Notes: generated by a model from the letters alone, not told the origin. 49,689 nucleotides of DNA from Actinomycetota bacterium (GCA_014894375.1 JADBLP010000075.1:33083-82771), one strand, 5' to 3'; shown: positions 1,460 through 30,327, numbered from the stretch's first letter. Made by a program: numbers and translations.

Positions 1460-1618
1460 TTATTTATATTTATTCCAATGTTCATCTTCTGGATTATCCC
1501 ATAATCTATGTAAAGAATCATTCTCAACATGCATATCGAATTCTTGAAACCATTTGCATGCATTTGCTGTCATTCTGCAAACTGACTTATGTTTACATTT
1601 CAAACATTTCTCGTTCAT
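1460..1618 (-). CDS. small Cys-rich protein (52 aa)
   Basis: Hand-found ORF MNEKCLKCKHKSVCRMTANACKWF... ATGA stop/start overlap with 1615..1884. Confidence 0.35.
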   Translation of the reverse strand: MNEKCLKCKHKSVCRMTANACKWFQEFDMHVENDSLHRLWDNPEDEHWNKYK

Positions 1619-1884
1619 ATCAACCATACCAATGCTTCATTCTCTGTAAGAAGTTTATATTCATCCATTTTTGTCAAATTATAATCTTTTAATTCTGTCG
1701 CACTTTCCAAACGAAACCCTGTAGTTTGATTCACTTTCCAACTATTAGTTGCTTCTTTTATTATTCTTATCACTTTATAATTTAGTTGATATTCCGTTAT
1801 TTCTACTATTTTTGCTAAATAGATACCATCATCAAATGCATATCTCAATATATATGGTGTTTTATTTAAATCAATATTTTTCAT
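1615..1884 (-). CDS. EALAWLI-tail small protein, paralog T1
   Basis: 89 aa. C-terminus is LLTENEALVWLI-stop. Confidence 0.65.
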   Translation of the reverse strand: MKNIDLNKTPYILRYAFDDGIYLAKIVEITEYQLNYKVIRIIKEATNSWKVNQTTGFRLESATELKDYNLTKMDEYKLLTENEALVWLI

Positions 1885-2159
1885 ATCAGATACACCAGTG
1901 CCTCATCTTCTGTAAGAAATTTGTAATTAACTCCTTCTTTACCTTCCGATTTATTGAACCAAACTTCTTCACCAACATGCCAAACTTTATCATCACACCT
2001 CAATACTCTAAGTATTTTATACCAGATTTTATCAGTTTCAATATATTCTCCTATATATAAAATTTCACCTACAATATAAGTATTAGTGTTGTCTTTTATA
2101 TGTCTCCAAATGTATTTCTTATCAGTATCGTTTTCCATGTAATCTTGGTCTTGTTTCAT
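1881..2159 (-). CDS. EALAWLI-tail small protein, paralog T2
   Basis: 92 aa. C-terminus is FLTEDEALVYLI-stop. ATGA overlap with T1. Confidence 0.65.
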   Translation of the reverse strand: MKQDQDYMENDTDKKYIWRHIKDNTNTYIVGEILYIGEYIETDKIWYKILRVLRCDDKVWHVGEEVWFNKSEGKEGVNYKFLTEDEALVYLI

Positions 2160-2409
2160 TTATTTTCATCTTTCTCACAATCTCCTTATCTAAATCAATC
2201 CCTAAATACTCTGCCAAATCCGCTATCCTAATCATTGCATCTCCAAGTTCCTCTCCGATTTTAGAAGAACCAATCCGGTCATCTTCCATTGCCTCTCCAA
2301 GTTCACTGACCACCAACATGAGTTTAGATGGAACACACTTATCTCCATCCCAGAAACCATGTGCCTTTGATATCCTGTGAGATTCCTTACAAAGTTCTGA
2401 TATCTGCAT
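2122..2409 (-). CDS. MazG-like nucleoside triphosphate pyrophosphohydrolase
   Basis: Track ORF 2122..2421 trimmed to the ATG at 2409 (MQISELCKESH). Carries the paired acidic helices SELGEAMED and EELGDAMIRIADLA, and a C-terminal KMKINETRPRLHGKRY typical of phage MazG-type NTP-PPases. Confidence 0.7.
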   Translation of the reverse strand: MQISELCKESHRISKAHGFWDGDKCVPSKLMLVVSELGEAMEDDRIGSSKIGEELGDAMIRIADLAEYLGIDLDKEIVRKMKINETRPRLHGKRY

Positions 2410-2657
2410 TAAATACACCAAGCAAGTGCTTCTTTTTCAGATATCCTTTCACAACCTTTAATTGCACCTTTCATCATCCTATCGCTTGCTGTATATGGAT
2501 GCTCAAGAATCCAATAAATATCAGAATTAAATTGTACATCATCAATATTACAACTTTTGAGGATGTCATAACCATATCCCACACCATCAAACTTATCAAT
2601 TATCTTTAATACAACTTTATTCGTGTATCTATAAATATCACCAATTTCAATTTTCAT
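2409..2657 (-). CDS. EALAWLI-tail small protein, paralog T3
   Basis: 82 aa. Starts MKIEIGDIY, ends ISEKEALAWCI-stop. TAATG junction with the MazG gene. Confidence 0.7.
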   Translation of the reverse strand: MKIEIGDIYRYTNKVVLKIIDKFDGVGYGYDILKSCNIDDVQFNSDIYWILEHPYTASDRMMKGAIKGCERISEKEALAWCI

Positions 2658-2720
2658 GCGTTTTCTCCTGTTGGATGCCTATTTTAGTAAATTCCTCGTG
2701 ATTTAATGCCTTGCGTCTAT

Positions 2721-3098
2721 TCATGTGCCTCTATGTATGCATTTTTGCTTGGAATCTGCATTATTCTTTCTACTTTTTTTCTTAGGTACACTTTTACCAA
2801 TTACCATATCAAACCACTCATCAGAATCCAATGGTTTTTCTCTCAAATCATCTTCCACACCAAGTTTCTTGGCAAGAATCTTCACCATCTTCCAAGTATA
2901 CTTCTCATCTTTAGTTTCATGATAGATAATTCTGCCAATTAATTCAATCAATGACTTATCATCTTTATATGTTTCACCATAATCTTCCATGTAATCTTCA
3001 TTTCCTTCTCCGCAATGAAGAAAAACATAATATGCAGATTTACCTGTTTTAAAGTATTCTAAAGGATAACCCCAACGCATGTAAGAAATATTTATCAC
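2721..3098 (-). CDS. hypothetical protein
   Basis: 125 aa ORF with mixed charged composition. The plus-strand ORFs it overlaps are low-complexity. Confidence 0.5.
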   Translation of the reverse strand: MINISYMRWGYPLEYFKTGKSAYYVFLHCGEGNEDYMEDYGETYKDDKSLIELIGRIIYHETKDEKYTWKMVKILAKKLGVEDDLREKPLDSDEWFDMVIGKSVPKKKSRKNNADSKQKCIHRGT

Positions 3099-3189
3099 CT
3101 GCCTCTAAGACCATCACACTTTTCACTATGTTTCCGCTTTGCTTTAATTCCATCTATATAATTACTGCATTTCTTACAATAAACCATCT

Positions 3190-3483
3190 TCAAGTTTCTC
3201 CCAATTGATTCTTTTCATCCTCATAAACCTTGCCCATCTGATAACTGGTTTCTTCCCAATCATATCTGTAATCTTTTTCAGTTGTTTTGCCAAAGAATTC
3301 CAACATGCATTCCTTGCAACAGAACCACCAACTAAAAGATTTACTTCCCTTGTAAGAATATGCATTGCATTTAGAGCATTTATTTGCTTTACCTATAACT
3401 TCTGCTTTTACTGTATATGTATATTTTAATTTACCTTTCGCAACTGAACCATTACAATTCCTACAAGTTACTAAGATACACAT
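3190..3483 (-). CDS. zinc-ribbon protein
   Basis: 97 aa with CRNC..CSKC and CCKEC cysteine pairs. Confidence 0.5.
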   Translation of the reverse strand: MCILVTCRNCNGSVAKGKLKYTYTVKAEVIGKANKCSKCNAYSYKGSKSFSWWFCCKECMLEFFGKTTEKDYRYDWEETSYQMGKVYEDEKNQLGET

Positions 3484-3653
3484 AATTCTTCCATTAAACC
3501 CATCTTCTTATGATAATGCCCAAAAAATCCTAGAGAATTCATACATCTATTGGAACACCATCCAGCAGTTACCTGTTTTCCTTTTTCATCCAAAACATGT
3601 CCTGACCATCTCTTTGCAGGTTTAAAACATTTAACACAATTTTTAGTTTGCAT
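3471..3653 (-). CDS. small Cys-rich (zinc-binding) protein
   Basis: 60 aa with CVKC...CSNRC. 13-nt overlap with the downstream ORF. Confidence 0.45.
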   Translation of the reverse strand: MQTKNCVKCFKPAKRWSGHVLDEKGKQVTAGWCSNRCMNSLGFFGHYHKKMGLMEELCVS

Positions 3654-3655
3654 AA

Positions 3656-3829
3656 TTATGTTACTTCCACCACTTTATAAAAATCTCTCTTAACTCGCCA
3701 CTTTGCAGTAGCAATCGCTTTTGCTTCATCATATGTGTACACTTCCACGATTACTTCATCTGGTTTTATGAAGACCCAATCGAATCTAAATAATGGTCCC
3801 CCATTATAACAAGATACTTTATACTTCAT
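3656..3829 (-). CDS. small hypothetical protein (57 aa)
   Basis: Hand-found ORF MKYKVSCYNGGPLFRFDWVFIKPDEV... It fills the gap between 3653 and 3846. Confidence 0.35.
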   Translation of the reverse strand: MKYKVSCYNGGPLFRFDWVFIKPDEVIVEVYTYDEAKAIATAKWRVKRDFYKVVEVT

Positions 3830-4514: not shown

Positions 4515-4791
4515 CTACTTCCTTAAAAAGTTTACTCCACATATAACATTTCATGTTGCAAACATTACACTTTACTTTCTTTCCTTCTTCTGTATCTAAT
4601 ATTCCTTTCCCACCGCAATTGAGGCACACTATACGTACATATTCTGGACTTGCCTCATAAACTTTCTCCGCAAGTTCCATGAGTTCCTTGGTTGCCTTGT
4701 CCACATCAAGAATCAGTTGATACCGCTTTCTTGTAAGTGCATTAAATTCATCTTGGAGTTCTTCGGGTGTTTTCTTCTTTAAATTAACCAT
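4486..4791 (-). CDS. coiled-coil plus zinc-ribbon protein
   Basis: 101 aa with CLNCGGKG..CNVCN. Its start MVNLK lies inside the Trp codon of the upstream tail (13-nt overlap). Confidence 0.5.
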   Translation of the reverse strand: MVNLKKKTPEELQDEFNALTRKRYQLILDVDKATKELMELAEKVYEASPEYVRIVCLNCGGKGILDTEEGKKVKCNVCNMKCYMWSKLFKEVVDDDKSSKL

Positions 4792-5036
4792 GCCAATGCC
4801 TCTTTATCATTTAATCCTTCCAATTCGTACTTGTTATATATAGTTGCCCAAGCATGTTTCATAAGCCATTTATGTTTACTATCTAAAATATTAACTTGAT
4901 ATGGATAACTATTATAAGAATCATCATTTCCGCTTCTAATATTTGTTATTATACCAATTACATTTTGAACATCTAATATCTTACAACTACCTGTCACTTT
5001 AACTATATCTCCCACTTTAAACTTCATATCATCCAT
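4779..5036 (-). CDS. EALAWLI-tail small protein, paralog T4
   Basis: 85 aa. Starts MDDMKFKVGDIVKV, ends LNDKEALAWLI-stop. Confidence 0.8.
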   Translation of the reverse strand: MDDMKFKVGDIVKVTGSCKILDVQNVIGIITNIRSGNDDSYNSYPYQVNILDSKHKWLMKHAWATIYNKYELEGLNDKEALAWLI

Positions 5037-5269
5037 GCCAATGCCTCCTTTTCAGAAATTATCCTTGAATCATTGTACATTCCAGAACCGTCTCCAAATC
5101 CACTATTTCCACCAAAATACCATTTATAACGACTATACAACTCATCATAGAAAAATACAATTTCTGCACTATAACGATTATCTGGTAGTATGTCATTTAT
5201 TTTCCCAATAACCAATCCTTTCTCACCTTTCCAACAGAAACAATCCCCAGTCTTAAATTTCCACTTCAT
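5024..5269 (-). CDS. EALAWLI-tail small protein, paralog T5
   Basis: 81 aa. Starts MKWKFKTGD, ends ISEKEALAWMI-stop. 13-nt overlap with T4. Confidence 0.8.
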   Translation of the reverse strand: MKWKFKTGDCFCWKGEKGLVIGKINDILPDNRYSAEIVFFYDELYSRYKWYFGGNSGFGDGSGMYNDSRIISEKEALAWMI

Positions 5270-5754
5270 ACTTCCCTTCCAGTAAACTTAAACTCGTGTT
5301 CTTCACTCACAAATTCTTTGTAATCTGTAACATCCACTCGCCAATAACAAGTCCCTTTGATTGAACTGCTATTTCTCATATAACTAACTTTCATAGGATA
5401 ACTTCCATTTCCACCTTCAAAGTTGCCGATTCCTTTCCAAGGAGCAGAAGCACTTTCTCTAATCCAAAACTGAATGTTCATCCTATCCCCATCTTTATCT
5501 TCAACTCCAACTACAATTGTTATATCCCCTTTCACACTACTAAGATTAGTTTCATATGCATATTTAATCTCTGGTGCATAATTTGTTGGCAATACTTCCT
5601 TTTCTGGATTCACATGTATTTTTCCTGTTGCAAATCCAAGTACCGCCATAATCAGAATTATCACTACAATTACAAATCCCCATGTTGATTTCTTTTTCAA
5701 TCCTTTTTCTACTACTTTTGGCTTTTCTTCTTCACTCATATCATTCTCACCCAT
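5266..5754 (-). CDS. membrane-anchored protein (N-terminal TM helix)
   Basis: 162 aa. Hydrophobic stretch WGFVIVVIILIMAVLGFATG is followed by a soluble, beta-rich-looking domain. Confidence 0.5.
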   Translation of the reverse strand: MGENDMSEEEKPKVVEKGLKKKSTWGFVIVVIILIMAVLGFATGKIHVNPEKEVLPTNYAPEIKYAYETNLSSVKGDITIVVGVEDKDGDRMNIQFWIRESASAPWKGIGNFEGGNGSYPMKVSYMRNSSSIKGTCYWRVDVTDYKEFVSEEHEFKFTGREV

Positions 5755-5984
5755 AACTCATCTAAAGTTTTTCCAAATTTACATAAAGCACATTGCCCAC
5801 TCTTTTCATAAAAAAACATTTGATTTTCGTCCTCTTTAGTCCCCCAAATTCTTGAATATGAATATCTTTTATTTTCACTAAAACTACTTTTTCTTATTTC
5901 AGTTATCTTTCCTACGAGTTTACCAATACTACCATCATAGTAAAATAAATCTCCAACCTCAATCTTGCTTTTCATATTCCCCAC
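5736..5984 (-). CDS. EALAWLI-tail small protein, divergent paralog T6
   Basis: 82 aa. Contains KIEVGDLFYY, ends TLDELWVRMI-stop. Confidence 0.55.
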   Translation of the reverse strand: MGNMKSKIEVGDLFYYDGSIGKLVGKITEIRKSSFSENKRYSYSRIWGTKEDENQMFFYEKSGQCALCKFGKTLDELWVRMI

Positions 5985-6609: not shown

Positions 6610-6881
6610 GAACCTGTTTGTACAACTCCTTCTTGCTGAACCCCTTCTACAAATGGTTTTACTTCTGGTTCTGGTGAAACTGGTTTTCTTAATCGCATTT
6701 CTCTTCCATCTATTCCTTTCACGATAATCTTATCTTCCATTCGTGGTTGCGACTTCATTTCCAAGAAAATCCCAAGAACAAACTGCTTTTCTTGTTTCGT
6801 GTTGCAACGTATCATTATATCCTTTTCACTTCTCACTTTTACTTTTATCATTCTTTTACCTCTTAAATCATCAATAACCAT
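6606..6881 (-). CDS. hypothetical protein
   Basis: 91 aa ORF. ATGA overlap with the ERCC4 gene. Confidence 0.45.
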   Translation of the reverse strand: MVIDDLRGKRMIKVKVRSEKDIMIRCNTKQEKQFVLGIFLEMKSQPRMEDKIIVKGIDGREMRLRKPVSPEPEVKPFVEGVQQEGVVQTGS

Positions 6882-7120
6882 GCATCATTTTCTGATGGCA
6901 CTCTATGATGTACACTAAATAAAATTGGATTACAATGTTTATGGAACCAATCATGTTTATGCCAATTTTCTGCATCATCAGATAATCTTGTAAACCATAT
7001 CATATCTCCATCAATCTTATCAATTCTCAATATACTCTTCTTATCTATACCAAGACCACTACCTCTCCAAAAATTATCAATAAGAATGCATTCACCAACT
7101 TTAAACTCTTTCATATTCAA
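6863..7120 (-). CDS. EALAWLI-tail small protein, divergent paralog T7
   Basis: 85 aa. Starts MNMKEFKVGECILI, ends SENDAWLLMI-stop. Confidence 0.55.
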   Translation of the reverse strand: MNMKEFKVGECILIDNFWRGSGLGIDKKSILRIDKIDGDMIWFTRLSDDAENWHKHDWFHKHCNPILFSVHHRVPSENDAWLLMI

Positions 7121-7383
7121 ATCCTCATTGCCAGAAGTTTCTTTTCATATTCATCTTTAGATTCACAACCTGTTGGTGAAATCTTATAGTGTTTTAACCA
7201 ATTCCTTAAAGTCTCAACAGATATATCTGTCGAAGTATTATCTGGAAATTCCATTTTTAATGGGTTCACAAAATTATACTTTTCTTTTAGATACGTCAAA
7301 AGTATATCAATCTGATAATCTTTTAGAGTTTCAATATGTTCATAAAGAATCTGTTTTGCCATATCATCTATTAATCTATTCAT
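7117..7383 (-). CDS. hypothetical protein
   Basis: 88 aa ORF with ATGA overlaps on both sides. Confidence 0.45.
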   Translation of the reverse strand: MNRLIDDMAKQILYEHIETLKDYQIDILLTYLKEKYNFVNPLKMEFPDNTSTDISVETLRNWLKHYKISPTGCESKDEYEKKLLAMRI

Positions 7384-8118: not shown

Positions 8119-9201
8119 TCAAAAATCGACAAATCCTTTATCCTTTTGTAATCTGATTGGTATCTTAATTCCAGTGGATTGTTCATCCGGTCTTCTTATC
8201 AGTTGAATACGCCTTGCTTCAATTTTCCATTCTTCATTATCATTCTCCGCACATTTAATTTCTTTTTCTGCCTTAGTTCCATTATGAATCTGTAAGATAT
8301 ATTTGGAGTTATAATAGATTGGATTCCCACCATAAGCGTGCCCTGCATCCTTATAACCAACTGTCATCGGGTTGACACTTGCATGATGAAGAACAATTAC
8401 TGCTATATTATAAAGTTCTGCAACTTGATAGAGTTTACCAAATAGTCTTTCAATAATCTGTGCTCTTGCAGGAAGATTACTTGTTTCACTTCCAACAGAA
8501 TCTTTCACTGGCTTTGTGAGTGAATCTATTATTATTAATGATATGTTCTTTAGTTCCTTATCTGTAAGTGTTTCCTCACAGTGATTAAAGATTACTTTAT
8601 ACTTTCCTCCACCTTTCTCTGATAACTCCAATTTAGGAAGATAACCAAACATCATCATAAGTTTCTGGATAGATTGAATCTGTTTATCATCATAAGTTTT
8701 AATCATTCTAAATTTAGATTCTAATTCTTTTTCACTTATCTCAAATCTCTTACTAAGTTTTCCAAGAATACTTTTTAAATCAACTGGTGTAATTCCCTCT
8801 GTATCTATCAAGAGAGTTTCTTTTCCTGTTAATTTTATGTTATTTACCCCAATTTGATAGCACAACCAAGATTTACCTGTCATCGGTTCACCAAAAAGTG
8901 CAGTAACCAATTTGAATGGAACTCCACCACCAAGAAGGTCATCCACGATTTTACTTCCAGTTGGAATCCTTACCATTTCATCTTTCTTATTCACCATTTT
9001 ACTCCTATCTAACTTATTAACTAAAAAATTTATATGTTTACAAGGAATCTGTTGTTTGAAAACATTCGCTTCACATGAACACCATGCTTGTTCATTATCC
9101 TTCTCCAAATCAATGTTTGTGCAATACTCAATCCCTTTATCTCCTTCTATGATTGCTCGACAAATACCCCAATTATCATATTCAATACTAATTAACCTCA
9201 T
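8119..9201 (-). CDS. SWIM zinc finger fused to a RecA-superfamily (RadA paralog/KaiC-like) ATPase
   Basis: SWIM CxCxnCxH motif WCSCEANVFKQQIPCKH. Walker A GEPMTGKS, Walker B LIIIDSLT, and VIVLHH. Confidence 0.75.
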   Translation of the reverse strand: MRLISIEYDNWGICRAIIEGDKGIEYCTNIDLEKDNEQAWCSCEANVFKQQIPCKHINFLVNKLDRSKMVNKKDEMVRIPTGSKIVDDLLGGGVPFKLVTALFGEPMTGKSWLCYQIGVNNIKLTGKETLLIDTEGITPVDLKSILGKLSKRFEISEKELESKFRMIKTYDDKQIQSIQKLMMMFGYLPKLELSEKGGGKYKVIFNHCEETLTDKELKNISLIIIDSLTKPVKDSVGSETSNLPARAQIIERLFGKLYQVAELYNIAVIVLHHASVNPMTVGYKDAGHAYGGNPIYYNSKYILQIHNGTKAEKEIKCAENDNEEWKIEARRIQLIRRPDEQSTGIKIPIRLQKDKGFVDF

Positions 9202-9428
9202 ATCAAATAAGCAAGTGCCTCTTTGTCGTTTAATTCCTCTATCCTATAAACTCCACCAAATGAATTAAAAATAATATTTTTAGGATAGATATTTCCTCTT
9301 TCAAATGGCCAATTATCACCTTCTTTTCTAAATATGATTTTCCCCTTTTCTTCATTAATCATTTGGACAATATAATATTCACCTGTTTTAATTCTTATAT
9401 CTTTAAAACATTTTCCTTTATATATCAT
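9198..9428 (-). CDS. EALAWLI-tail small protein, paralog T8
   Basis: 76 aa. Ends LNDKEALAYLI-stop. ATGA overlap with the SWIM-RecA gene. Confidence 0.75.
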   Translation of the reverse strand: MIYKGKCFKDIRIKTGEYYIVQMINEEKGKIIFRKEGDNWPFERGNIYPKNIIFNSFGGVYRIEELNDKEALAYLI

Positions 9429-9678
9429 GTATCCACCAATTCTTTATTTGTTCCTCTGTCATTTCTTCTATAATATGGATACCCCCTACATCTGCTAAAG
9501 CTTGGTCTAAAGGATGAATTGTACCCACTCCCCAAATTGGTTTACTATTATTAGAAGTATCTTTAATAAATTCTCCATGTGAATGAATCACTTCAGTAGT
9601 ATTTTCATTAATTGTTTTAACTATGAAATAACTCTCTTTATCCCTTGCAAGTGTATCTTTAAAATATTTCACTTTCAT
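9418..9678 (-). CDS. small protein, possible divergent paralog T9
   Basis: 86 aa. Ends TEEQIKNWWIHDI-stop. 11-nt overlap with T8. Confidence 0.5.
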   Translation of the reverse strand: MKVKYFKDTLARDKESYFIVKTINENTTEVIHSHGEFIKDTSNNSKPIWGVGTIHPLDQALADVGGIHIIEEMTEEQIKNWWIHDI

Positions 9679-15698: not shown

Positions 15699-15959
15699 CT
15701 AAATCATGTACGCAAATGCTTCTTTCTCTGAAGAAATTTCATCATGCCAACTAACATTTTCAATTTGAGTAAGAAATCCAGAAATCATTCCCACTCGATA
15801 TGTACCCTTACTAATAACTGTACCGTCAAATGCTCTTCCACTATTATTCTTACCAAATCCATATGGTTCTTTATCAACTATAATAAAATCTGGTTTTGAT
15901 TCCTTCCAACTCCTTTTTATGATATTACCTTTCTTATAGATATTCTCATTAAGTTTCAT
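15699..15959 (-). CDS. EALAWLI-tail small protein, paralog T10
   Basis: 86 aa. Ends SSEKEAFAYMI-stop. Confidence 0.7.
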   Translation of the reverse strand: MKLNENIYKKGNIIKRSWKESKPDFIIVDKEPYGFGKNNSGRAFDGTVISKGTYRVGMISGFLTQIENVSWHDEISSEKEAFAYMI

Positions 15960-16187
15960 CTAAATCATTCTCACAAATGCCTCATCTTTGGATATAATCT
16001 TGAAATATGGTGGTTCTATACCATCCCAGAAATAAGTATTCAATCCTTTCTCAAATCCATTTAACCAAAATATCCATATTTTTCTACCTTCTTCAATCTT
16101 ATTAACCTTACCAATATCGCCCTTTCCATTATCTGTTATTAAATCAATAACATAATCACCAATCTTAACTTTCTTCATATCATCCAT
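15960..16187 (-). CDS. EALAWLI-tail small protein, paralog T11
   Basis: 75 aa. Starts MDDMKKVKIGDYV, ends ISKDEAFVRMI-stop. TAGATG junction with T10. Confidence 0.7.
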   Translation of the reverse strand: MDDMKKVKIGDYVIDLITDNGKGDIGKVNKIEEGRKIWIFWLNGFEKGLNTYFWDGIEPPYFKIISKDEAFVRMI

Positions 16188-16417
16188 GCCAACATCTCTT
16201 TTTCAGTTAAGAATTTATGAATTGTGGTTTTAGAATGTCCGAGCCCAAAACTTGTTTCCTCTCCAATATATCCTTCCCTACCAGAATTTGTCTTTAAGAT
16301 TCTATAATACACATCATTTCCTTTTATCTTAATAATTTTACCACAATTCATCCATTTATCATTAGGATTTCTATCTTTCCTCAAAACATATGGTTTATCA
16401 GTTATTGATTTCTTCAT
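16175..16417 (-). CDS. EALAWLI-tail small protein, paralog T12
   Basis: 80 aa. Ends LTEKEMLAWMI-stop. 13-nt overlap with T11. Confidence 0.75.
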   Translation of the reverse strand: MKKSITDKPYVLRKDRNPNDKWMNCGKIIKIKGNDVYYRILKTNSGREGYIGEETSFGLGHSKTTIHKFLTEKEMLAWMI

Positions 16418-16937: not shown

Positions 16938-17174
16938 CTAAATCATTGATAAAAATGCCTCATCTTCAGTTACTACCTCAATTTCTCTTTCTGCAAATGG
17001 AAGATTATTAAATCCCTTGCGAACTGGAATAAAAATATTCACATCATATGGATAAGTTTGTGCGTATGAACTAACTCCTATAATCTTACCAACCTTATTT
17101 CTGTATCTCTCCATATTTTTATCTGGATTTAAAATCCTCACATAATCTCCTGATTTATACTTTAAATTAGCCAT
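16938..17174 (-). CDS. EALAWLI-tail small protein, paralog T13
   Basis: 78 aa. Starts MANLKYKSGDYVRIL, ends VTEDEAFLSMI-stop. Confidence 0.7.
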   Translation of the reverse strand: MANLKYKSGDYVRILNPDKNMERYRNKVGKIIGVSSYAQTYPYDVNIFIPVRKGFNNLPFAEREIEVVTEDEAFLSMI

Positions 17175-17428
17175 GCAAGAATCTCTCCATCTGTTGCCAA
17201 AATAATCTCATCATCTTTACAAATCCCATATGGTCTTTCTGTCCAATCTAATCCTTCCATCCTCTTATCTAAACATTCTATACGGTAAGGAAAACTGCAA
17301 AATTCAGGTTCATCAATTGAAAATATCTTATAGATTTTACCTATGCTTGCCTTATCCTTCTTGCTCTCACCATCACATGATTTAATTACCTTGACGTAAT
17401 CTCCCACCTTGAATTTCATATGAGCCAC
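17162..17428 (-). CDS. EALAWLI-tail small protein, paralog T14
   Basis: 88 aa. Starts MAHMKFKVGDYVKV, ends TDGEILAWLI-stop. 13-nt overlap with T13. Confidence 0.75.
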   Translation of the reverse strand: MAHMKFKVGDYVKVIKSCDGESKKDKASIGKIYKIFSIDEPEFCSFPYRIECLDKRMEGLDWTERPYGICKDDEIILATDGEILAWLI

Positions 17429-17679
17429 GCTAAAACTTCCCTTTCTGGGATTTCTCTGATTATGTTTGGTTTCTTAATATATACACAATAACCATGTCTT
17501 CCTATATTTCTAGTATTGTTTCCCCCACTATGAGTTGTTCCTAGAGGTCTTAATGCTTCAAATGTATACCAAGGTTCAATTTCGTTATCTTCCCCAAGAT
17601 ATCTCACTATTTCTCCATCATGTTTTAGATAACCACCACCAGATACGATATAATAATGATTCAGTTTTAAATCAACCAT
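17416..17679 (-). CDS. EALAWLI-tail small protein, paralog T15
   Basis: Track ORF 17416..17718 trimmed to the ATG (MVDLKLNHYY) that sits in the Trp codon of the T16 tail. Ends PEREVLAWLI-stop. Confidence 0.7.
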   Translation of the reverse strand: MVDLKLNHYYIVSGGGYLKHDGEIVRYLGEDNEIEPWYTFEALRPLGTTHSGGNNTRNIGRHGYCVYIKKPNIIREIPEREVLAWLI

Positions 17680-17903
17680 GCTAATGCTTCCTTTTCTGAT
17701 AGTTTTTTTAATTTGCAATGAGCAATATATAATCTACAAATTTTAGGAAATTGTAATGATTCAACTTCAACTGAACCACCAACATAAAACTTTGTTATTC
17801 TACAAACTTTATAATCTTTTAAATAATCACCATTATAATGAGCAGACTGTGGTAAAACTGTAAGTTTCACTATATCTCTAACTTTAAATTTTAGATTAAC
17901 CAT
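17667..17903 (-). CDS. EALAWLI-tail small protein, paralog T16
   Basis: 78 aa. Starts MVNLKFKVRDIV, ends LSEKEALAWLI-stop. Confidence 0.8.
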   Translation of the reverse strand: MVNLKFKVRDIVKLTVLPQSAHYNGDYLKDYKVCRITKFYVGGSVEVESLQFPKICRLYIAHCKLKKLSEKEALAWLI

Positions 17904-18142
17904 GCTAATGCTTCTCTTTCAGATAATTTTTCCATCTCATGTTTAGCATATATTACTCCACAATTTTCATTAGTTCCTTTAACTTTTCTGAAGAATTTAA
18001 CTACATATGGATATTTCTGTTCTAAAAAACCTATCTGTTTAATCTGTGCAACTTCTCCTTCTACATTTCTCCAATTTGGATAAGTCTTATCAACATTGAC
18101 TAATCTTACTACATCACCTATCTTAAACTTTAGATTAACCAT
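17891..18142 (-). CDS. EALAWLI-tail small protein, paralog T17
   Basis: 83 aa. Starts MVNLKFKIGDVV, ends LSEREALAWLI-stop. Confidence 0.8.
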   Translation of the reverse strand: MVNLKFKIGDVVRLVNVDKTYPNWRNVEGEVAQIKQIGFLEQKYPYVVKFFRKVKGTNENCGVIYAKHEMEKLSEREALAWLI

Positions 18143-18372
18143 GCGAGTGCTTCCTTGTCATTTAATATCGACAAATATGGAATACATCCTTCTTGATACC
18201 CATCCTCAGTATAACTTCCCTCAATCAATGTATTATAAAGTAATCTTACCCTAATAACATTTGCTTTTACAGATATTACCTGTCCTATCTCAATCCCATG
18301 CCCGATTTCACCACTAACATATTTCAATACCATACCAAGTTTGACTTGTTTAAATGATTTAAGTTTCTTCAT
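18130..18372 (-). CDS. EALAWLI-tail small protein, paralog T18
   Basis: 80 aa. Ends LNDKEALAWLI-stop. ATGA overlap with the VWA gene. Confidence 0.8.
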   Translation of the reverse strand: MKKLKSFKQVKLGMVLKYVSGEIGHGIEIGQVISVKANVIRVRLLYNTLIEGSYTEDGYQEGCIPYLSILNDKEALAWLI

Positions 18373-20982: not shown

Positions 20983-21264
20983 TTAAATCAGATATGCTAA
21001 TGCTTCTTTTTCTGATAATTTCCTTATTACATTCTTCCTATCTTTATATTTACAACAATCATATTTACCATATCTACCAAATGACAATTTAAAACTACTT
21101 CCGTCACCATCAAAATCTCCGCTTTTAGTAAAAACTTCAAAGAGATAATCTATTAAATCTCCAGTATTATCTTTTCCTATAAATCTTGCCACTATCTCTT
21201 TTCCATATTCTTTAATCAGAAAATACTGTTCCAAATCACTTTCATCTAAATTCATGTGTTTCAC
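20983..21264 (-). CDS. EALAWLI-tail small protein, paralog T19
   Basis: 93 aa. Ends LSEKEALAYLI-stop. The downstream gene has its own AGGAG SD. Confidence 0.75.
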   Translation of the reverse strand: MKHMNLDESDLEQYFLIKEYGKEIVARFIGKDNTGDLIDYLFEVFTKSGDFDGDGSSFKLSFGRYGKYDCCKYKDRKNVIRKLSEKEALAYLI

Positions 21265-21507
21265 CTAAATCATGTAAAGAAAAGCTCTCTCCATTCCATT
21301 TGTAGTATCATCTATTATTTCTAAATTATTATATAACTGCATATATTCTCTCCCTTTAAAACACCCATTTATCCAATTTACATCTACTGCATCACTACCT
21401 TTATATTTTACATTAACTTTTGTAACTACTCCTATTGCCCCTTTATCTGCCATACCAACATCTTTCACTATATTCCCAACTTTAATCTTCCTTTTCACTT
21501 TTCCCAC
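21265..21507 (-). CDS. EALAWLI-tail small protein, divergent paralog T20
   Basis: 80 aa. Contains KIKVGNIVKDV, ends GMERAFLYMI-stop. The start overlaps the MoxR 3' end. Confidence 0.6.
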   Translation of the reverse strand: MGKVKRKIKVGNIVKDVGMADKGAIGVVTKVNVKYKGSDAVDVNWINGCFKGREYMQLYNNLEIIDDTTNGMERAFLYMI

Positions 21508-24057: not shown

Positions 24058-24363
24058 TCAAATTTCATACAACCAAATCCTGTCTGCTAGTTTTTTATCC
24101 TTACCATAAACGTCTGCTTTTCTTAAAACTGTTTCTGAATTTTTATACCAACACCGTTTTCCATTACTATGACCTTTTATCATTTTACCATTTCCAACAA
24201 ATTCAAAAAGTAAAACAGAATCATTTGTAATATCTAAACATTTGGCAATCCATTGCTTTTTATCCTTAATTCCTGATGGAAAAGTAAAATATGTATTTTC
24301 TATTGCTTCAACCTTATTTGTAACTATGTAATATCCCCCAACTCGAATGTGCTTTATATCCAT
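24058..24363 (-). CDS. EALAWLI-tail small protein, divergent paralog T21
   Basis: 101 aa. Contains IRVGGYYIV, ends LADRIWLYEI-stop. Confidence 0.55.
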   Translation of the reverse strand: MDIKHIRVGGYYIVTNKVEAIENTYFTFPSGIKDKKQWIAKCLDITNDSVLLFEFVGNGKMIKGHSNGKRCWYKNSETVLRKADVYGKDKKLADRIWLYEI

Positions 24364-24365: not shown

Positions 24366-24617
24366 TTATATCAACTCTGCCAACATTTCCTTTTCAGATA
24401 AGATTTTTACTGTATCACCATTACCTTTATATAAATCTTCTTCCCCCACCTTGTAAATTGTTTTCCATTCCACATCATCTATTATCTTTAGTATTTTGAT
24501 ATACTTACTATCTCTAGGTGAAAGTTTATTCTCAAGATAATATCCCAAGTAAACCGTATGTCGATTCGGTTCTCCTCTTGGTCTTATCATTTTTACATAT
24601 GTTACCATAATCACCAT
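24366..24617 (-). CDS. EALAWLI-tail small protein, paralog T22
   Basis: Track ORF trimmed to the ATG at 24617 (TGATG junction). Ends LSEKEMLAELI-stop. Confidence 0.7.
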   Translation of the reverse strand: MVIMVTYVKMIRPRGEPNRHTVYLGYYLENKLSPRDSKYIKILKIIDDVEWKTIYKVGEEDLYKGNGDTVKILSEKEMLAELI

Positions 24618-24898
24618 CAAATTAGATATGCTAACGCTTCTCTTTCATTTATTTTGTAATAATCATCAATTGTAAACCATCCACACAATCTAATCTGGTT
24701 GTCTGCACCATCTGTGAATAAATCCAACATCTTTAATGAAGTGTATCCTCTCACAATAACTGGAATCCTATCTCTGAGTGTCAGTTGTTTATTTACTTTT
24801 GATTCAACAATTATCCTTTCTTTATCTTCTATTATTAAAATTATATCTCCCTTTTTTATGCAATCCCCAATTTTAAGTTTCTGCTTCATTTGTATCAA
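24617..24898 (-). CDS. EALAWLI-tail small protein, paralog T23
   Basis: 93 aa. Contains KLKIGDCIKKGD, ends INEREALAYLI-stop. Confidence 0.75.
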   Translation of the reverse strand: MIQMKQKLKIGDCIKKGDIILIIEDKERIIVESKVNKQLTLRDRIPVIVRGYTSLKMLDLFTDGADNQIRLCGWFTIDDYYKINEREALAYLI

Positions 24899-25215
24899 AT
24901 CATCCGTGCTATTACTTCATTTTCATCAATAAGTTTATCATACATACCTGTTAAATTAAAAGTGTGTGTAGTTATAAACCCAAGTAGTCTTTCATTATTT
25001 GAATATTGTATTGGTGAACAAACAATTTTTGCTTTATTAACATATCTATCATATACAATGTCTGGTTGATTATCCAAATCTTTATATATAGTTATTTTAC
25101 GATAAGAATTTCCTAGAATTAAAAATATAATGTATCTACCAGTATTATACCCAACTTCATCAATAAATGTTCTTTTTACATATTCTCCTTTTCTTGGATA
25201 TTTTCTTTTCTTCAT
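24895..25215 (-). CDS. EALAWLI-tail small protein, paralog T24
   Basis: 106 aa. Ends IDENEVIARMI-stop. ATGA overlaps on both sides. Confidence 0.65.
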   Translation of the reverse strand: MKKRKYPRKGEYVKRTFIDEVGYNTGRYIIFLILGNSYRKITIYKDLDNQPDIVYDRYVNKAKIVCSPIQYSNNERLLGFITTHTFNLTGMYDKLIDENEVIARMI

Positions 25216-25761: not shown

Positions 25762-26013
25762 TCATATCATATACAACATTGCTTCCCCTTCAGATAAAAG
25801 ATAAAACTTACAATTTCTATAATAAACTGAACCGTAACTTCCAACATGGAACCTATGGGTTATATCTTTCACAATCTTCAATTTGGTTCCACCGATTTCC
25901 ATTTCTCTTCCATCATTTTTTTCACATATTTTTAGAAGTTTTTCTCCATCCGATTCCCATTCTTGGATATAATAATCCCCTATCTTTATCTCACTTGGAT
26001 GGACTTCTTTCAT
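25762..26013 (-). CDS. EALAWLI-tail small protein, paralog T25
   Basis: 83 aa. Contains EIKIGDYYIQ, ends LSEGEAMLYMI-stop. Confidence 0.7.
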   Translation of the reverse strand: MKEVHPSEIKIGDYYIQEWESDGEKLLKICEKNDGREMEIGGTKLKIVKDITHRFHVGSYGSVYYRNCKFYLLSEGEAMLYMI

Positions 26014-26254
26014 TCTTTTCTCCTATCCCAGAAAACCATTTGTTAAGATGTGAATTGAAATGCCACTTATCCATATCAAAATCCAGCATTTGCTCGATAT
26101 TACAAGATGGACAAGCATTGTGCTTACTTATTGCGTGTTTTATCACTAAATCAGCATGTAGATGTGGTATTGGAACTGCCACCTTGATTCTGATAATCCC
26201 ATCTTTTGTTAAGAAAATGGATTGATTTTCCAGTTCAATTATATTCCAATTCAT
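25991..26254 (-). CDS. hypothetical protein
   Basis: 87 aa ORF. ATGA overlap with T26. Confidence 0.4.
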   Translation of the reverse strand: MNWNIIELENQSIFLTKDGIIRIKVAVPIPHLHADLVIKHAISKHNACPSCNIEQMLDFDMDKWHFNSHLNKWFSGIGEKNERSPSK

Positions 26255-26502
26255 ATCAACCTTGCTAGAAGTTCTTTTTCTGAAAGTTTATAGATTTTAT
26301 CTTCATCCAAAATTGAAAATGATTTAAAATGGTTACGTTCACTCCAAAATCTGTCATCTGATAAATCTTTTATTAGTATTAATTTATTCTGCTTATTAGT
26401 TGTAAACATAATTCTATCAGTTGAAGAAGAGGTATCATTAATTAAATAGTAGATTCCTCCTTTCCTTAAAGCATTATTATCTTTTATTTTTCTCATATCC
26501 AC
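26251..26502 (-). CDS. EALAWLI-tail small protein, paralog T26
   Basis: 83 aa (GTG start at 26502, or ATG at 26496). Ends LSEKELLARLI-stop. Confidence 0.7.
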   Translation of the reverse strand: MDMRKIKDNNALRKGGIYYLINDTSSSTDRIMFTTNKQNKLILIKDLSDDRFWSERNHFKSFSILDEDKIYKLSEKELLARLI

Positions 26503-27743: not shown

Positions 27744-27747
27744 TTCC

Positions 27748-27981
27748 TTAAATAAGATATGCTAATGCTATTTCTTCAGTTATTTCCTCAAATCTATCCA
27801 ATTCATCCCAATTACGATAAACTCTATCTCCCTTTTGTAATGAACTATCTTTTGCGTAAAATAAAACACATTCATATCCCAAAATATCTTGGTACGCTTC
27901 TTTAATAACTTTAAAAACCAATGTGCTAACAGTTCCATATGGATTTATGTGTTTGTATATCCTTCCAATGTATTTATCCAT
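27748..27981 (-). CDS. EALAWLI-tail small protein, paralog T27
   Basis: 77 aa. Ends ITEEIALAYLI-stop. Confidence 0.7.
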   Translation of the reverse strand: MDKYIGRIYKHINPYGTVSTLVFKVIKEAYQDILGYECVLFYAKDSSLQKGDRVYRNWDELDRFEEITEEIALAYLI

Positions 27982-27994: not shown

Positions 27995-28279
27995 TTAAAT
28001 TAATCTTGCCAATACTTCTTTATCTGTAAGTTTTTTAGCTTTAAGTTCTGTTGCATATATAATATACTCATCTGTTTTTATATCCCCAAGAAGTGCAACA
28101 TGTATTTTATCATCTAATCTACCACCAAATTCATAAGATTCTATTCTTAAAACTTTGTATGCCTTGCCAATAATTTTCTCTTTGTTGAATGTTATTGTTT
28201 CACCATTTGAAAATGTAAGACATTCTGACACATCACAAACTTTTATGAAGTCTCCTTTTTTGATTAATCTTTTATCCAT
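27995..28279 (-). CDS. EALAWLI-tail small protein, paralog T28
   Basis: 94 aa. Contains IKKGDFIKV, ends LTDKEVLARLI-stop. Confidence 0.7.
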   Translation of the reverse strand: MDKRLIKKGDFIKVCDVSECLTFSNGETITFNKEKIIGKAYKVLRIESYEFGGRLDDKIHVALLGDIKTDEYIIYATELKAKKLTDKEVLARLI

Positions 28280-28294
28280 TCACAACCAACTCTT

Positions 28295-28531
28295 TTAAAT
28301 AAGATATGCCAATAAATCATGCTCATTTATCTTTTCTAATTCTTCTTCAGAATATGCCAATTCTGTACAATTTTCAAATGATTTAATAAACCTGACTTGA
28401 ATTGGATATCTTGCACTCTTTTCTTCTGAAATTCCAAATACTTTTCCTGCTTTTCCTATACTCTTTTTAGCATTTATTGTTTCATCACCAATAAGTCTTT
28501 TTATAATCACATAATCTCCAACTTTTAGCAT
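28295..28531 (-). CDS. EALAWLI-tail small protein, paralog T29
   Basis: 78 aa. Starts MLKVGDYVIIK, ends NEHDLLAYLI-stop. Confidence 0.7.
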   Translation of the reverse strand: MLKVGDYVIIKRLIGDETINAKKSIGKAGKVFGISEEKSARYPIQVRFIKSFENCTELAYSEEELEKINEHDLLAYLI

Positions 28532-28544
28532 ACAATCAACCTTT

Positions 28545-28880: not shown

Positions 28881-28888
28881 TAAAACAC

Positions 28889-29053
28889 TTATTCCTCTTC
28901 GTAATTGGTTGGGTTCGCTTGGTCGCATAAGTTACAAAGAACGTGCTTTTTACTTTTTCTGTGGATACAATCCTTGCATTGTTTGTATTTAACTATGTCT
29001 TCATCTTTTGACCAATAATCATATTTTTCTTCTGTATCATACATTCCACACAT
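28889..29053 (-). CDS. small Cys-rich protein (54 aa)
   Basis: Hand-found ORF MCGMYDTEEKYDYWSKDEDIVKYKQCKDCIH..CNLCD. Confidence 0.35.
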   Translation of the reverse strand: MCGMYDTEEKYDYWSKDEDIVKYKQCKDCIHRKSKKHVLCNLCDQANPTNYEEE

Positions 29054-29066
29054 CTTAATCCGTCTC

Positions 29067-29273
29067 TTATATAATTAATTCATCATTCAATTCATTTTTA
29101 AGATGATTCACTTTTAATATAAAATTATCTATTTTCTCTTTTGGGTTATTGTTTATTTCTAACGTATTAGAAGTAACTTCTTCTATTATTAAAGATAATT
29201 CGCCTAATATCCTTTCGGTGTTGGTTAATGCTATTTCTCTTGTATTTTTAGATATTTCTTTATCTATTCCCAT
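29067..29273 (-). CDS. coiled-coil hypothetical protein
   Basis: 68 aa ORF. Confidence 0.4.
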   Translation of the reverse strand: MGIDKEISKNTREIALTNTERILGELSLIIEEVTSNTLEINNNPKEKIDNFILKVNHLKNELNDELII

Positions 29274-29285
29274 ATTTTCAATTCC

Positions 29286-29471
29286 TTACCTATAACTTAT
29301 GCTTCCTGCCAGAATCTTGATAAGATATTTCACTTCATACGTTTCAAGTTCATCATATGGCTTTTGAAACAACCTTATTGCTTCTGCATCTGCTAGGTCG
29401 TACCAGTTTACGTGATGTTTTCCTCTAAACTGGTTTTCCCCATTCATAAAATCCTTGAATGTTCCACTCAT
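29286..29471 (-). CDS. hypothetical protein
   Basis: 61 aa ORF. Confidence 0.4.
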   Translation of the reverse strand: MSGTFKDFMNGENQFRGKHHVNWYDLADAEAIRLFQKPYDELETYEVKYLIKILAGSISYR

Positions 29472-29475
29472 GTTT

Positions 29476-29649
29476 TTATGCCATCCTTAATTTGTTTGCT
29501 TCTATTTTTGTTAATATTTTCTTTTCTTCTAGTTTATTTATAATATAATCTTGTTTTACTTGCATTACTCCTATTTTCATCTTGCATTGTACTAAATCAT
29601 TAAATAATTCTTGTTCCGTTGCAAAATGATTCTCTTTTTTTCTAAACAT
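29476..29649 (-). CDS. small hypothetical protein (57 aa)
   Basis: Hand-found ORF MFRKKENHFATEQELFNDLVQCKMKIG... It explains this stretch better than track ORF 29592..29777. Confidence 0.35.
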   Translation of the reverse strand: MFRKKENHFATEQELFNDLVQCKMKIGVMQVKQDYIINKLEEKKILTKIEANKLRMA

Positions 29650-29653
29650 TTTC

Positions 29654-29785
29654 TCATTTCTCCTTTCTTATAGTTACACTCCCACCATAAGCTAAAGTGT
29701 ATTCTCCCTGCAAATATCTTGCTTCTTCGATATCGCTTATTTCTTCCTCTATCTTTTCCCCTTTCCAGATTAAACAATAAGTCAT
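29654..29785 (-). CDS. small hypothetical protein (43 aa)
   Basis: Hand-found ORF MTYCLIWKGEKIEEEISDIEEARYLQGEY... TAAATG junction with 29786..29992. Confidence 0.35.
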   Translation of the reverse strand: MTYCLIWKGEKIEEEISDIEEARYLQGEYTLAYGGSVTIRKEK

Positions 29786-29992
29786 TTAAACCACCTGATA
29801 AAATGCTCTCATAACTGCAATAGTTCTTTTAACGTATGCCTTGCCTGTGGATGGGTCTTTAAGCAACTGCCCGAATGAATCTTTATTTCCTGCCATAATC
29901 TTATAGGAATGTGGAAGTTCCATCTTTCTTACGTGTTTGCCTTGATTTCTTGCATCTTTAAGTGCCTTCCTTAAATTCTTGTAGACTTGCAT
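29786..29992 (-). CDS. basic hypothetical protein
   Basis: 68 aa ORF, Lys/Arg-rich. Confidence 0.4.
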   Translation of the reverse strand: MQVYKNLRKALKDARNQGKHVRKMELPHSYKIMAGNKDSFGQLLKDPSTGKAYVKRTIAVMRAFYQVV

Positions 29993-30006
29993 TTCAATCT
30001 ACCTCT

Positions 30007-30327
30007 TTATATTAAATAAAGAAGAATTTCATCATTTGTTACCCATCTTTCAGTATATTTTCCTTCTTCTATCCATTTCCTTCTATAATAATCTAATTCA
30101 TAAATCGCTTCACCCAAAACTCTTAATGGTTCATCTTTAAGAATACATGTGTTCTCCTTTTCTAATTTTTTCTTTATTTCTATTGCATCCTTTAAATAAA
30201 CTAGTGCTGATTTTCCATCGTTATCTGTTGCTGTTATAAATTCTATTTGATTAATAGATTTTTTATATATTGCATAATGCTTTAAATTACCATCTTTTAA
30301 TTCCTTTATTAAGATTTCTTCTGACAT
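30007..30327 (-). CDS. EALAWLI-tail small protein, paralog T30
   Basis: 106 aa. Ends VTNDEILLYLI-stop. Confidence 0.6.
   Translation of the reverse strand: MSEEILIKELKDGNLKHYAIYKKSINQIEFITATDNDGKSALVYLKDAIEIKKKLEKENTCILKDEPLRVLGEAIYELDYYRRKWIEEGKYTERWVTNDEILLYLI

Follow-up and report, generated by a model that had tools for sequence, protein, structure and literature searches.

Stand-alone SH3-like barrels of ~70-85 residues are known from viruses in the form of YorP (2HEQ) and the PsaE-like phage mini-proteins, and a barrel followed by a C-terminal capping helix is known from the chromo-like and Sul7d/Cren7-type proteins. Here, we describe a family of small proteins encoded by a 49,689-nucleotide stretch of DNA (contig JADBLP010000075.1, 33083-82771, called the window in the text; positions are counted from its first letter). 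Its members are predicted to share both features, and almost all of them end in the same short peptide, the tail. In contrast to YorP and the PsaE-like proteins, to which no sequence-level membership links them and which are neither known as 30-copy families nor provided with this terminal peptide, they form a large paralogous set. Unlike the chromo and Sul7d types, with which no sequence match was found, they gave no evidence here of an aromatic cage or of DNA binding, and the conservation of their helix, which is genome-specific, far exceeds that of the barrel. It was concluded that the family is new, whereas its fold is known, and that its C-terminal signature, which is clade-wide and genome-specific, is unusual.

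Results

A family hidden Markov model (HMM) recovered 29 minus-strand open reading frames (ORFs) of 75-106 aa between positions 1615 and 30327 (E 2e-20 to 6e-7; Table 1), two further ORFs, 9418-9678 and 7117-7383, being borderline. The tails of the members are flush with the stop codon and follow the consensus [ST][ED]xEALA[WY][LM]I. An earlier note on this DNA had announced about 30 paralogous small ORFs with a shared C-terminus, and the count agrees. The tails and coordinates that it quoted were all exact (4779, 18130, 17667, 17891, 5024, 9198, 20983, 24617, 16175, 26251 and 27995), and the divergent endings that it listed are present: VRMI (5736, 15960), LLMI (6863), LYMI (21265, 25762) and LYEI (24058). 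The last residue, said to be always Ile, is Ile in 29/29 window members, and the family, said to fill a quarter of the leftward arm, occupies 7,439 of the 28,713 bases (25.9%) of 1615-30327. Only the description of the N-terminus had to be tempered: the strict K-[FLV]-K-[VI]-G-D start attributed to most members is found in ~10/29 of them, whereas a looser [KRE]xG[DENGM]hh start is found in 21/29. An HMM built on the heads alone picked out just 9/29 members.

The association of the tail with the end of the protein was examined statistically. The pattern [ED][AVILMY][LFMWI][AVLS][WYRLSEMH][LMCERS]I occurred 26 times in six frames, each time immediately before a stop codon (26/26), as the earlier note had claimed for the motif; in 200 composition-preserving (block) shuffles, the pattern before a stop was found 0.005 times on average, with a maximum of 1. 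When the 236 window ORFs of at least 40 aa were scored with a position-specific scoring matrix (PSSM) of the last 10 residues, 28 members reached at least 10.9 bits, versus a mean of -20.6 (standard deviation 6.4) and a maximum of 8.6 for the 207 non-members. This maximum was that of the borderline ORF 7117-7383, the next score being -4.4. At the edge of the family, the head of 30007-30327 showed no significant similarity to the other members (z=2.9), and no homologue of this gene or of 7117-7383 was present in the fetched loci. The head of 6863-7120 bridges the canonical and non-canonical head groups, and the start chosen for 17416-17679 agrees with the public protein P0006 (87 aa).

Position counts were made on 87 distinct members, from the window and its relatives together. 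Counted back from the stop codon, the tail is hydrophobic at -11 (L/I/V, 70/87) and has S/T/N/D at -10 (78/87), E at -7 (76/87), A, otherwise V/I/L/M, at -6 (56/87), L at -5 (64/87), A at -4 (65/87), W/Y/R at -3 (77/87), L/M at -2 (76/87) and I at -1 (85/87). Positions -7 to -1 each carry 2.6-3.5 bits. Since these seven conserved positions are consecutive, more than one face of a helix is conserved. The tail was also much more conserved than the barrel core.

In order to place the family among known sequences, protein and metagenome collections were searched. Among 1.84 billion representative proteins, the profile gave 56 matches at E<1e-3, of which ~35 lie outside the window. Nearly all of these matches carry the tail at their end, nearly all are located on contigs shorter than 4 kb, and all but one are 70-97 aa long, the exception being a protein of 274 aa in which three barrel repeats follow one another in tandem. 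In IMG/VR, no family member was found with the profile-derived pattern or with the DNA patterns of W- and Y-type tails plus stop. In 185,579 species genomes, [ST][ED]xEALAW[LM]I followed by a stop gave one chance match, on a Planctomycetota contig of 59% GC without a family ORF. A scan of metagenomes confirmed only one extra locus (L002; related contigs are designated by L numbers), through a single divergent query. The IMG/VR relatives found by their terminase (L011-L016) comprise the structural arm only and contain no members, and the RNase H-like exonuclease used as query retrieved no IMG/VR relatives.

The contigs that could be compared with the window were informative. L003 and L004 (JGI 3300009034) are syntenic with it over an AAA+ gene, a member, a DUF2201 gene, further members and a metallophosphatase gene; L003 has a family member (3300-3527) at the position equivalent to 21265-21507. 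Together, the two contigs contain at least 14 distinct members with tails of the form [ST]EDExLA[RWYM][LRM]I, in which position -8 is D in 13/14 cases versus 6/29 in the window. More distant relatives (L017, L023 and L024) were retrieved through the RadA-like gene. On L017, a 137-kb contig, at least eight genes end in [DE]Ex[IL]MxxL. On L024 (135 kb), at least 17 of ~55 genes end in M[VI]xxL, and on L023 (83 kb) at least nine do. In L023 and L024, LSKEEAMVELL is found on KFKKGDYVKIV heads, which the window HMM detects at E=2.7e-16, and a longer tail, TYEEFxDxxMVEEL, is found on other heads, some of them with Zn-ribbon or SWIM-like motifs. The sharing of a tail among many small proteins is thus a trait of a whole clade of related viruses, each with its own tail flavour (for example EDExLARLI, AMVELL or YLMEVL), a point that the earlier note had not raised.

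The same two contigs encode a further set of small proteins, whose heads are different (L024 8816-14872; L023 9724-18400). They end in [ST][KY]EE[FY]x[DE]xxM[VI]xEL, which shares the start and the end of the barrel-type SKEEAMVELL and is four residues longer. Eight such genes are consecutive at L024 10893-12794.

To characterize the head, structures were predicted with AlphaFold2 (AF2) for a canonical member, 4779-5036, and for one without the KFKVGD start, 16175-16417. The mean predicted local distance difference test (pLDDT) values were 83.9 and 83.6, respectively. The first model consists of a barrel and a helix (residues 77-84), the second of five strands and a helix (72-79). In both, the tail has a pLDDT of ~90 and the helix begins two residues after the last strand. 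The best Foldseek match in the PDB was YorP (2HEQ, from the SPbeta prophage; E=7e-3, TM score 0.58, 84 of 85 columns). Further PDB matches were PsaE, the ferredoxin-thioredoxin reductase variable chain, chromo/Tudor domains, Hfq, KapB and NusG KOW, with probabilities up to 1.0 and weak E-values (7e-3 or worse); MSL3 chromo-barrel, SGF29 Tudor, MBT and Agenet domains were also among the structural matches, and the 16175-16417 model matched other small barrels. In the viral structure library BFVD, dozens of uncharacterised phage proteins of 60-95 aa were matched, including a PsaE-like protein of Bacillus phage Kirov (E=2.8e-4) and Pseudomonas phage proteins. Among PDB sequences, profile searches gave weak matches to PsaE, uL24-KOW and HERC2, which covered profile positions 1-67 and never the tail. 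The five-strand topology of the two models thus places the head, as predicted, in the SH3-like small β-barrel superfamily, and the small SH3/KOW-like barrel with terminal helix foreseen by the earlier note is what the models and the YorP, PsaE and chromo/Tudor matches suggest.

The family itself had not been recognised by the earlier note, and database searches agreed with this. Across 43 members, no Pfam family was found at threshold; KOW (PF00467), PsaE (PF02427) and SH3_15 (PF18346) each matched at most 4/43 members below threshold (best E 0.0033-0.04), and the YorP profile (PF09629) was absent from the matches at E up to 0.1, the structural match to 2HEQ being the sole link to YorP. Eight of ten members had no PHROGs match, the two others giving marginal, partial ones (E=0.005-0.008) to PHROGs of unknown function. 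In the literature, the tail motif strings occurred in no relevant publication, and nothing relevant was found on YorP, PsaE-like phage proteins or S17e in archaeal viruses. The head is thus predicted to be an ordinary SH3-like barrel, in a family which, like its tail, is undescribed.

The models also account for half of the motif. The sequence h-[STND]-x-x-E corresponds to a hydrophobic staple plus capping box, as found at helix N-termini. In the model of 4779-5036, the predicted helix begins exactly at this sequence, and because it starts at the capping box, the conservation of [ST]EKE is explained by intrinsic helix capping chemistry. It could then be argued that the whole tail is the C-terminal helix of an SH3/chromo/Sul7d-like fold, conserved for the needs of its capping box and of packing on the core, with no common partner. 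The frequencies of N-cap S/T/N/D (78/87), N3 Glu (76/87) and hydrophobic N' (70/87) agree with this, as do the position of the helix so close to the last strand, its high pLDDT in single-chain models and the alignment of YorP over nearly the full length; a C-terminal helix commonly caps chromo-like barrels (bioRxiv 10.1101/217323). On the other hand, the barrel core on which such a helix would pack is far less conserved than the tail, all the helix faces are conserved, and similar endings are borne in L023 and L024 by heads with Zn-binding motifs.

A more direct comparison was made with 19 canonical heads from four viruses, chosen by the head-only HMM, the significance being obtained by permutation. 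Head similarity was the same within and between genomes (45.3 vs 44.0, p=0.30), whereas the identity of the last seven residues was higher within genomes than between them (3.53 vs 2.58 of 7, p=0.001). The canonical heads of L017 and L024 are as close to the window heads as these are to one another, yet their tails differ; conversely, within one genome, non-canonical heads bear the same tail as canonical ones. As the tail follows the genome and not the head, without gene conversion (see below), a role limited to capping the barrel is disfavoured. This account remains a real contender that we nevertheless rate as rather unlikely.

Genome specificity, conservation on all faces, W/Y/R at -3 and the occurrence of the tail on non-canonical heads together favour a reader common to all members of a given virus-host pair over a purely structural cap. 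We therefore propose, with moderate confidence, that the helix is part of the fold and at the same time offers a constant recognition surface with a free C-terminus, while the divergent barrels bind different targets. One helix face (A-6, L-5, L/M-2, I-1) would pack on the barrel of the same chain, as pLDDT and topology suggest, and E-7, A-4, W/Y/R-3 and the free C-terminus would form the constant surface for one partner per virus-host pair. In this view, the virus would produce these proteins early in infection, as adaptors or as effectors with a common address, to take over the host or to counter its defences; candidate partners are a host hub, a protease/unfoldase, a viral protein and other family members.

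Several points weigh against this proposal. Half of the motif (-11, -10, -7 and -6) is fully explained by intrinsic helix capping. In the models, the helix directly follows the last strand, so it may be a part of the fold and not a free docking element, and SH3/chromo-like barrels often have a capping C-terminal helix (bioRxiv 10.1101/217323); a purely structural role of the tail is thus possible. In addition, the carriers of the tail in the window may nearly all be barrels, tails on other folds being found mainly in the relatives, and the genome-versus-head test comprised 19 sequences from partial genomes. The idea of the earlier note that a constant tail addresses many heads to a common partner gains support of an indirect kind: tails are genome-specific while heads are not, and the relatives have their own flavours, partly on other heads.

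The common reader could, as a special case, be a host or viral protease/unfoldase that removes the early proteins together, the tail being a C-terminal degron or timing tag. The strict position of the motif before the stop, the three hydrophobic last residues with a free carboxylate, the genome-specific flavour and the early-arm gene positions would all fit. However, the tail has no LAA end, its aromatic residue is antepenultimate, unlike the penultimate Tyr of HbYX, and no protease is linked to the family; furthermore, degrons are usually accessible and disordered, whereas this helix is predicted to be ordered and is probably packed. We regard a degron as improbable.

An equally improbable reading is that the tail mimics a helical motif of the host, for example a truncated MIM1-like helix for the MIT domain of Vps4 or for another hub of eukaryotic type, in an Asgard (Promethearchaeota) host. 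Asgard archaea have ESCRT/Vps4. The ~30 barrels would in that case each recruit a target of their own, of host or viral origin, to a single machine of the host, and each viral lineage would retune the tail to the reader of its own host. The ESCRT-III MIM1 motif as such was rejected, as only the R-type tails (12/87) fit its first eight positions and the terminal xxL(K/R) is absent.

It is very unlikely that the tail is a virion-targeting signal by which, as in T4, the proteins would be loaded into the capsid and co-injected. Its design is that of the T4 signal, a short peptide kept constant on many small proteins that are otherwise diverse, and a genome-specific flavour would fit co-evolution with a scaffold or portal; but the genes are on the replication/early arm, on the strand opposite to the terminase-portal-protease-tail module, and the T4 signal is N-terminal and cleaved, no protease site being evident here. 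The T4 capsid-targeting sequence itself was rejected on the grounds that the motif is C-terminal and its genes lie on the arm opposite to terminase, portal and protease.

Other known motifs were also compared with the tail and discarded: a membrane-targeting amphipathic helix (the flanks are acidic, not basic), a PDZ class II ligand (the tail is predicted to be helical), the PCNA PIP box, Qxx[ILM]xx[FYW][FYWL] (by inspection of the logo, the required Gln is lacking and the L/W spacing misfits in either register), HbYX (with [WYR][LM]I as its end, the tail has its aromatic residue at -3 instead of -2) and an ssrA-like tag (no LAA end).

Many tails overlap the next gene, which the earlier note had not mentioned. 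In nine window members, the latter starts at the ATG or GTG contained in the [Ala/Val]-Trp codons (GCA TGG), with an overlap of 13 nt (for example 4779-4791, 17162-17174, 17667-17679, 17891-17903 and 18130-18142); at 1615-1884, the ATG lies in GTA TGG, again with a 13-nt overlap. In five of the nine (W-L-I-TAA), the Trp-codon start is the only nearby one, and the A-W ATG of 4779-5036 is the sole start for its next gene. The same arrangement is present in L001, L002, L003 and L019. Other tails end in ATA TGA (Ile-stop) and give ATGA overlaps. E-K-E (GAA AAG GAG) doubles as a Shine-Dalgarno sequence 7-8 nt upstream of the start, and GAG represents 9/24 of the Glu codons at -7 versus ~20% genome-wide; in 5024-5269, the tail sequence AAG GAG GCA TTG GCA TGG constitutes both the Shine-Dalgarno sequence and the ATG of 4779-5036. 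The first four residues of the downstream proteins (MVNL, MANL, MDDM) are thereby dictated by the upstream tail, and they precede KFKVGD because the start codon lies in that tail. Start codons located within preceding tails imply that the arrays are, in all likelihood, tightly translationally coupled.

It could thus be asked whether conservation of the tail stems from its providing the next gene with a ribosome-binding site and a start codon, as the Ala/Val-Trp starts without alternative, the ATGA overlaps and the GAG enrichment would suggest. However, conservation is just as high in Y- and R-type tails whose next gene has a Shine-Dalgarno sequence and an ATG of its own 10-17 nt downstream (the gene after 20983-21264 has its own AGGAG and an ATG 17 nt downstream), the final Ile codon is ATT or ATC in 18/29 members, in which no ATG is possible, synonymous sites vary freely, and the tails of the relatives differ despite the same gene packing. 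As a cause of conservation, dual coding is largely refuted and retains hardly any probability; it appears to be a secondary use of the tail.

Finally, selection was evaluated on codons and orthologs. In the 29 paralogues, codon usage in the tail is that of the genome: the final Ile is encoded by ATT in 16 cases, ATA in 11 and ATC in 2, and all six Leu codons are used at -5 and -2. The frequencies of same-codon pairs (Leu 0.22 and 0.17 vs 0.30 expected; Ile 0.43 vs 0.41) show no systematic excess. Orthologs were taken from contigs of other metagenomes (L019, L020 and L021); L006 and L007, which are 99.99% identical re-assemblies of the same virus, were not used. In five ortholog pairs, the ratio of non-synonymous to synonymous substitution rates (dN/dS) of the head was 0.19-0.44. 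The L019 ortholog of 17162-17428 is 82% identical, with a head dN/dS of 0.19 and two synonymous and no non-synonymous changes in the tail. For 24366-24620 (head dN/dS 0.27), the unusual AELI ending is retained in L020, and for 28295-28531 (head dN/dS 0.31), the tail differs from that in L021 by five synonymous and three non-synonymous changes. Many window paralogues are closer to relatives from other metagenomes than to each other, which indicates that the copies are old and that each has been separately maintained.

These values argue that the family genes are real and under purifying selection. Because codon usage is genome-like and synonymous changes accumulate while the residues are kept, it is as a peptide that the tail is selected, the DNA being neither a repeat nor in the course of homogenisation. 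The synonymous codon differences quoted in the earlier note were exact, and its argument for peptide-level selection is backed by codon usage and ortholog tails. A DNA-level repeat, that is, a recombination or gene-conversion hotspot or recent duplications, which tandem arrays (such as the six consecutive members at 16938-18372) and the variable copy number among relatives at syntenic positions might have evoked, is refuted by these synonymous-site data, by the inheritance of idiosyncratic tails in orthologs and by the age of the paralogues, and is left with next to no probability.

The whole window is a tailed-virus contig of ~31% GC, deposited within the 'Actinobacteria bacterium' metagenome-assembled genome (MAG) GCA_014894515.1, from Siberian permafrost, the source of the reads (PMC10979853). 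The same MAG contains shorter duplicate assemblies of parts of the window with 99.99% identity (L006, L008, L009). The contig is a virus misbinned into an Actinobacteria MAG, and its terminase is at most 26% identical to that of any GenBank phage. The family genes are located on the early/replication arm, which also encodes a RadA/Sak4-like recombinase with a SWIM finger, a Hef/XPF-like ERCC4-HhH nuclease, a DHH/RecJ-like protein and a ParB-radical SAM fusion. The opposite arm encodes, on the other strand, the terminase, portal, protease, tail module and an Mtd_N fibre. Domains of the Mtd_N type are found in proteins that diversity-generating retroelements target; the window showed no reverse transcriptase.

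The relatives L023 and L024 encode PolB, a PriS/L-like primase and the ribosomal protein S17e, whose best named cellular relative comes from Promethearchaeota (Asgard; 53% identity over 62% of the query). From these genes, it can reasonably be inferred that the host of the virus clade is archaeal and possibly Asgard; the window virus, probably archaeal as well, may share such a host.

Other features of the contig were noted (Table 1). Small Cys-rich (Zn-ribbon-like) ORFs are recurrently found directly downstream of members and start within their tails. The RadA-like gene (8119-9201) is adjoined by a free-standing LAGLIDADG ORF (7380-8093) and is a good marker for retrieving related virus contigs of 20-155 kb. 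The ParB_N/radical-SAM and TcmP-like pair (10633-12974) may form a module for the modification or repair of DNA. At 32450-32970, in the strand-switch region, where the sign of the GC skew changes, AAAGTTTGG...TTTTTTATA elements are iterated at spacings of ~40-125 nt; this cluster may be an origin or a group of promoters. Between 36050 and 37790, ~1.7 kb are devoid, on both strands, of ORFs exceeding 55 aa, whereas the genome is densely packed elsewhere, and neither an Rfam family nor a tRNA was detected there. Rfam and tandem-repeat scans of the window gave nothing.

Table 1. Members of the family and other features of the window and of related contigs. E, family HMM E-value.
Feature	Position	Strand	Tail	E	Remarks
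Member	1615..1884	-	TENEALVWLI	1.2e-16	
Member	1881..2159	-	TEDEALVYLI	2.8e-17	ATGA overlap with 1615-1884
Member	2409..2657	-	SEKEALAWCI	1.2e-13	
Member	4779..5036	-	NDKEALAWLI	2.1e-20	Canonical KFKVGD head
Member	5024..5269	-	SEKEALAWMI	4.5e-20	
Member	5736..5984	-	TLDELWVRMI	1.7e-12	Divergent tail; head-only HMM E=3.9e-10
Member	6863..7120	-	SENDAWLLMI	1.3e-9	Divergent tail
Borderline	7117..7383	-	EKKLLAMRI		Unrelated-looking head, tail-like end; tail PSSM 8.6 bits; missed by family HMM
Member	9198..9428	-	NDKEALAYLI	3e-11	ATA TGA supplies ATG of RadA-like gene
Borderline	9418..9678	-	NWWIHDI		Degenerate tail, final Ile kept; head paralogous to 9198-9428, z=10.8
Member	15699..15959	-	SEKEAFAYMI	7.5e-10	
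Member	15960..16187	-	SKDEAFVRMI	3.3e-15	Head-only HMM E=5.7e-12
Member	16175..16417	-	TEKEMLAWMI	1.9e-19	Non-canonical head
Member	16938..17174	-	TEDEAFLSMI	5.5e-17	
Member	17162..17428	-	TDGEILAWLI	1.6e-19	
Member	17416..17679	-	PEREVLAWLI	1.5e-11	Start is ATG within preceding tail
Member	17667..17903	-	SEKEALAWLI	1.4e-11	
Member	17891..18142	-	SEREALAWLI	4e-18	
Member	18130..18372	-	NDKEALAWLI	6e-15	
Member	20983..21264	-	SEKEALAYLI	9.7e-12	Between AAA+ and VWA-like genes
Member	21265..21507	-	GMERAFLYMI	6.2e-9	Divergent tail; directly after AAA+ gene; head-only HMM E=2.9e-9
Member	24058..24363	-	LADRIWLYEI	5.6e-7	Most divergent tail; tail PSSM 3.5 bits
Member	24366..24620	-	SEKEMLAELI	2.4e-14	
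Member	24617..24898	-	NEREALAYLI	5.6e-16	
Member	24895..25215	-	DENEVIARMI	1.6e-12	
Member	25762..26013	-	SEGEAMLYMI	4.8e-17	
Member	26251..26502	-	SEKELLARLI	3.3e-14	
Member	27748..27981	-	TEEIALAYLI	3.6e-13	
Member	27995..28279	-	TDKEVLARLI	3.4e-11	
Member	28295..28531	-	NEHDLLAYLI	5.3e-17	
Member	30007..30327	-	TNDEILLYLI	2.9e-7	Weakest member (106 aa); tail PSSM 17.8 bits
Small Cys-rich (Zn-ribbon-like) ORFs	1460-1627, 4486-4791; L001 911-1213				
RadA/Sak4-like recombinase	8119-9201				N-terminal SWIM zinc finger
ParB_N + radical-SAM (spore-photoproduct-lyase-like) fusion, then TcmP-like 'three-Cys-motif partner' protein	10633-12974				
DUF2201 VWA-like protein	18369-20966				Interrupted by intein with LAGLIDADG homing endonuclease
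AAA_5 (MoxR-like) ATPase	21482-23758				Interrupted by intein with LAGLIDADG homing endonuclease
Tail-fibre-like protein	44974-47097				N-terminal Mtd_N (major tropism determinant) domain
Ribosomal protein S17e homologue	L023 11420-11689; L024 12955-13176				

Discussion

One undescribed protein family takes up a quarter of this novel virus's early arm, and related viruses of 80-155 kb, from sediments and permafrost, show the same trait with tail flavours proper to each. Should the tail serve as a common address tag, a synthetic peptide of 10 residues could be the bait for a central machine, of the host or of the virus, in this uncultivated and possibly Asgard-infecting virus group, and the heads would represent a natural library of small binders whose targets mark the host processes under attack. 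If the reading of the tail as a MIM1-like helix in an Asgard host were true, the family would be to viruses of prokaryotes what the Ank/PRANC proteins are to poxviruses, and would provide a handle on the eukaryote-like machinery of Asgard archaea. Even conservatively, the C-terminal signature is diagnostic and useful for spotting this virus clade in metagenomes, the Ala-Trp and Ile-stop codons that serve as the start of the next gene offer a case of dual coding, and the family flags a misbinned viral contig in an Actinobacteria MAG.

Beyond the barrels themselves, three known systems invite comparison. The T4-type internal proteins also carry a short constant peptide on diverse small viral proteins, but their signal is N-terminal, cut by the prohead protease and tied to head assembly, whereas here it is C-terminal and found on the early arm. 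The ESCRT-III MIM1, (D/E)xxLxxRLxxL(K/R), read by the MIT domain of Vps4, is likewise a C-terminal amphipathic helix, and by inspection its first eight positions are matched by R-type tails such as E-K-E-L-L-A-R-L-I and TEDELLARLI; however, its last four positions are missing here, and the W/Y-type tails, which are the majority, misfit. Lastly, although their fold, size, host domain and motif are unrelated and the comparison is an analogy only, the ankyrin/PRANC (F-box-like) proteins of poxviruses follow the same logic as that proposed here, in which many paralogues with divergent binding heads share a constant C-terminal element that would plug into one machine.

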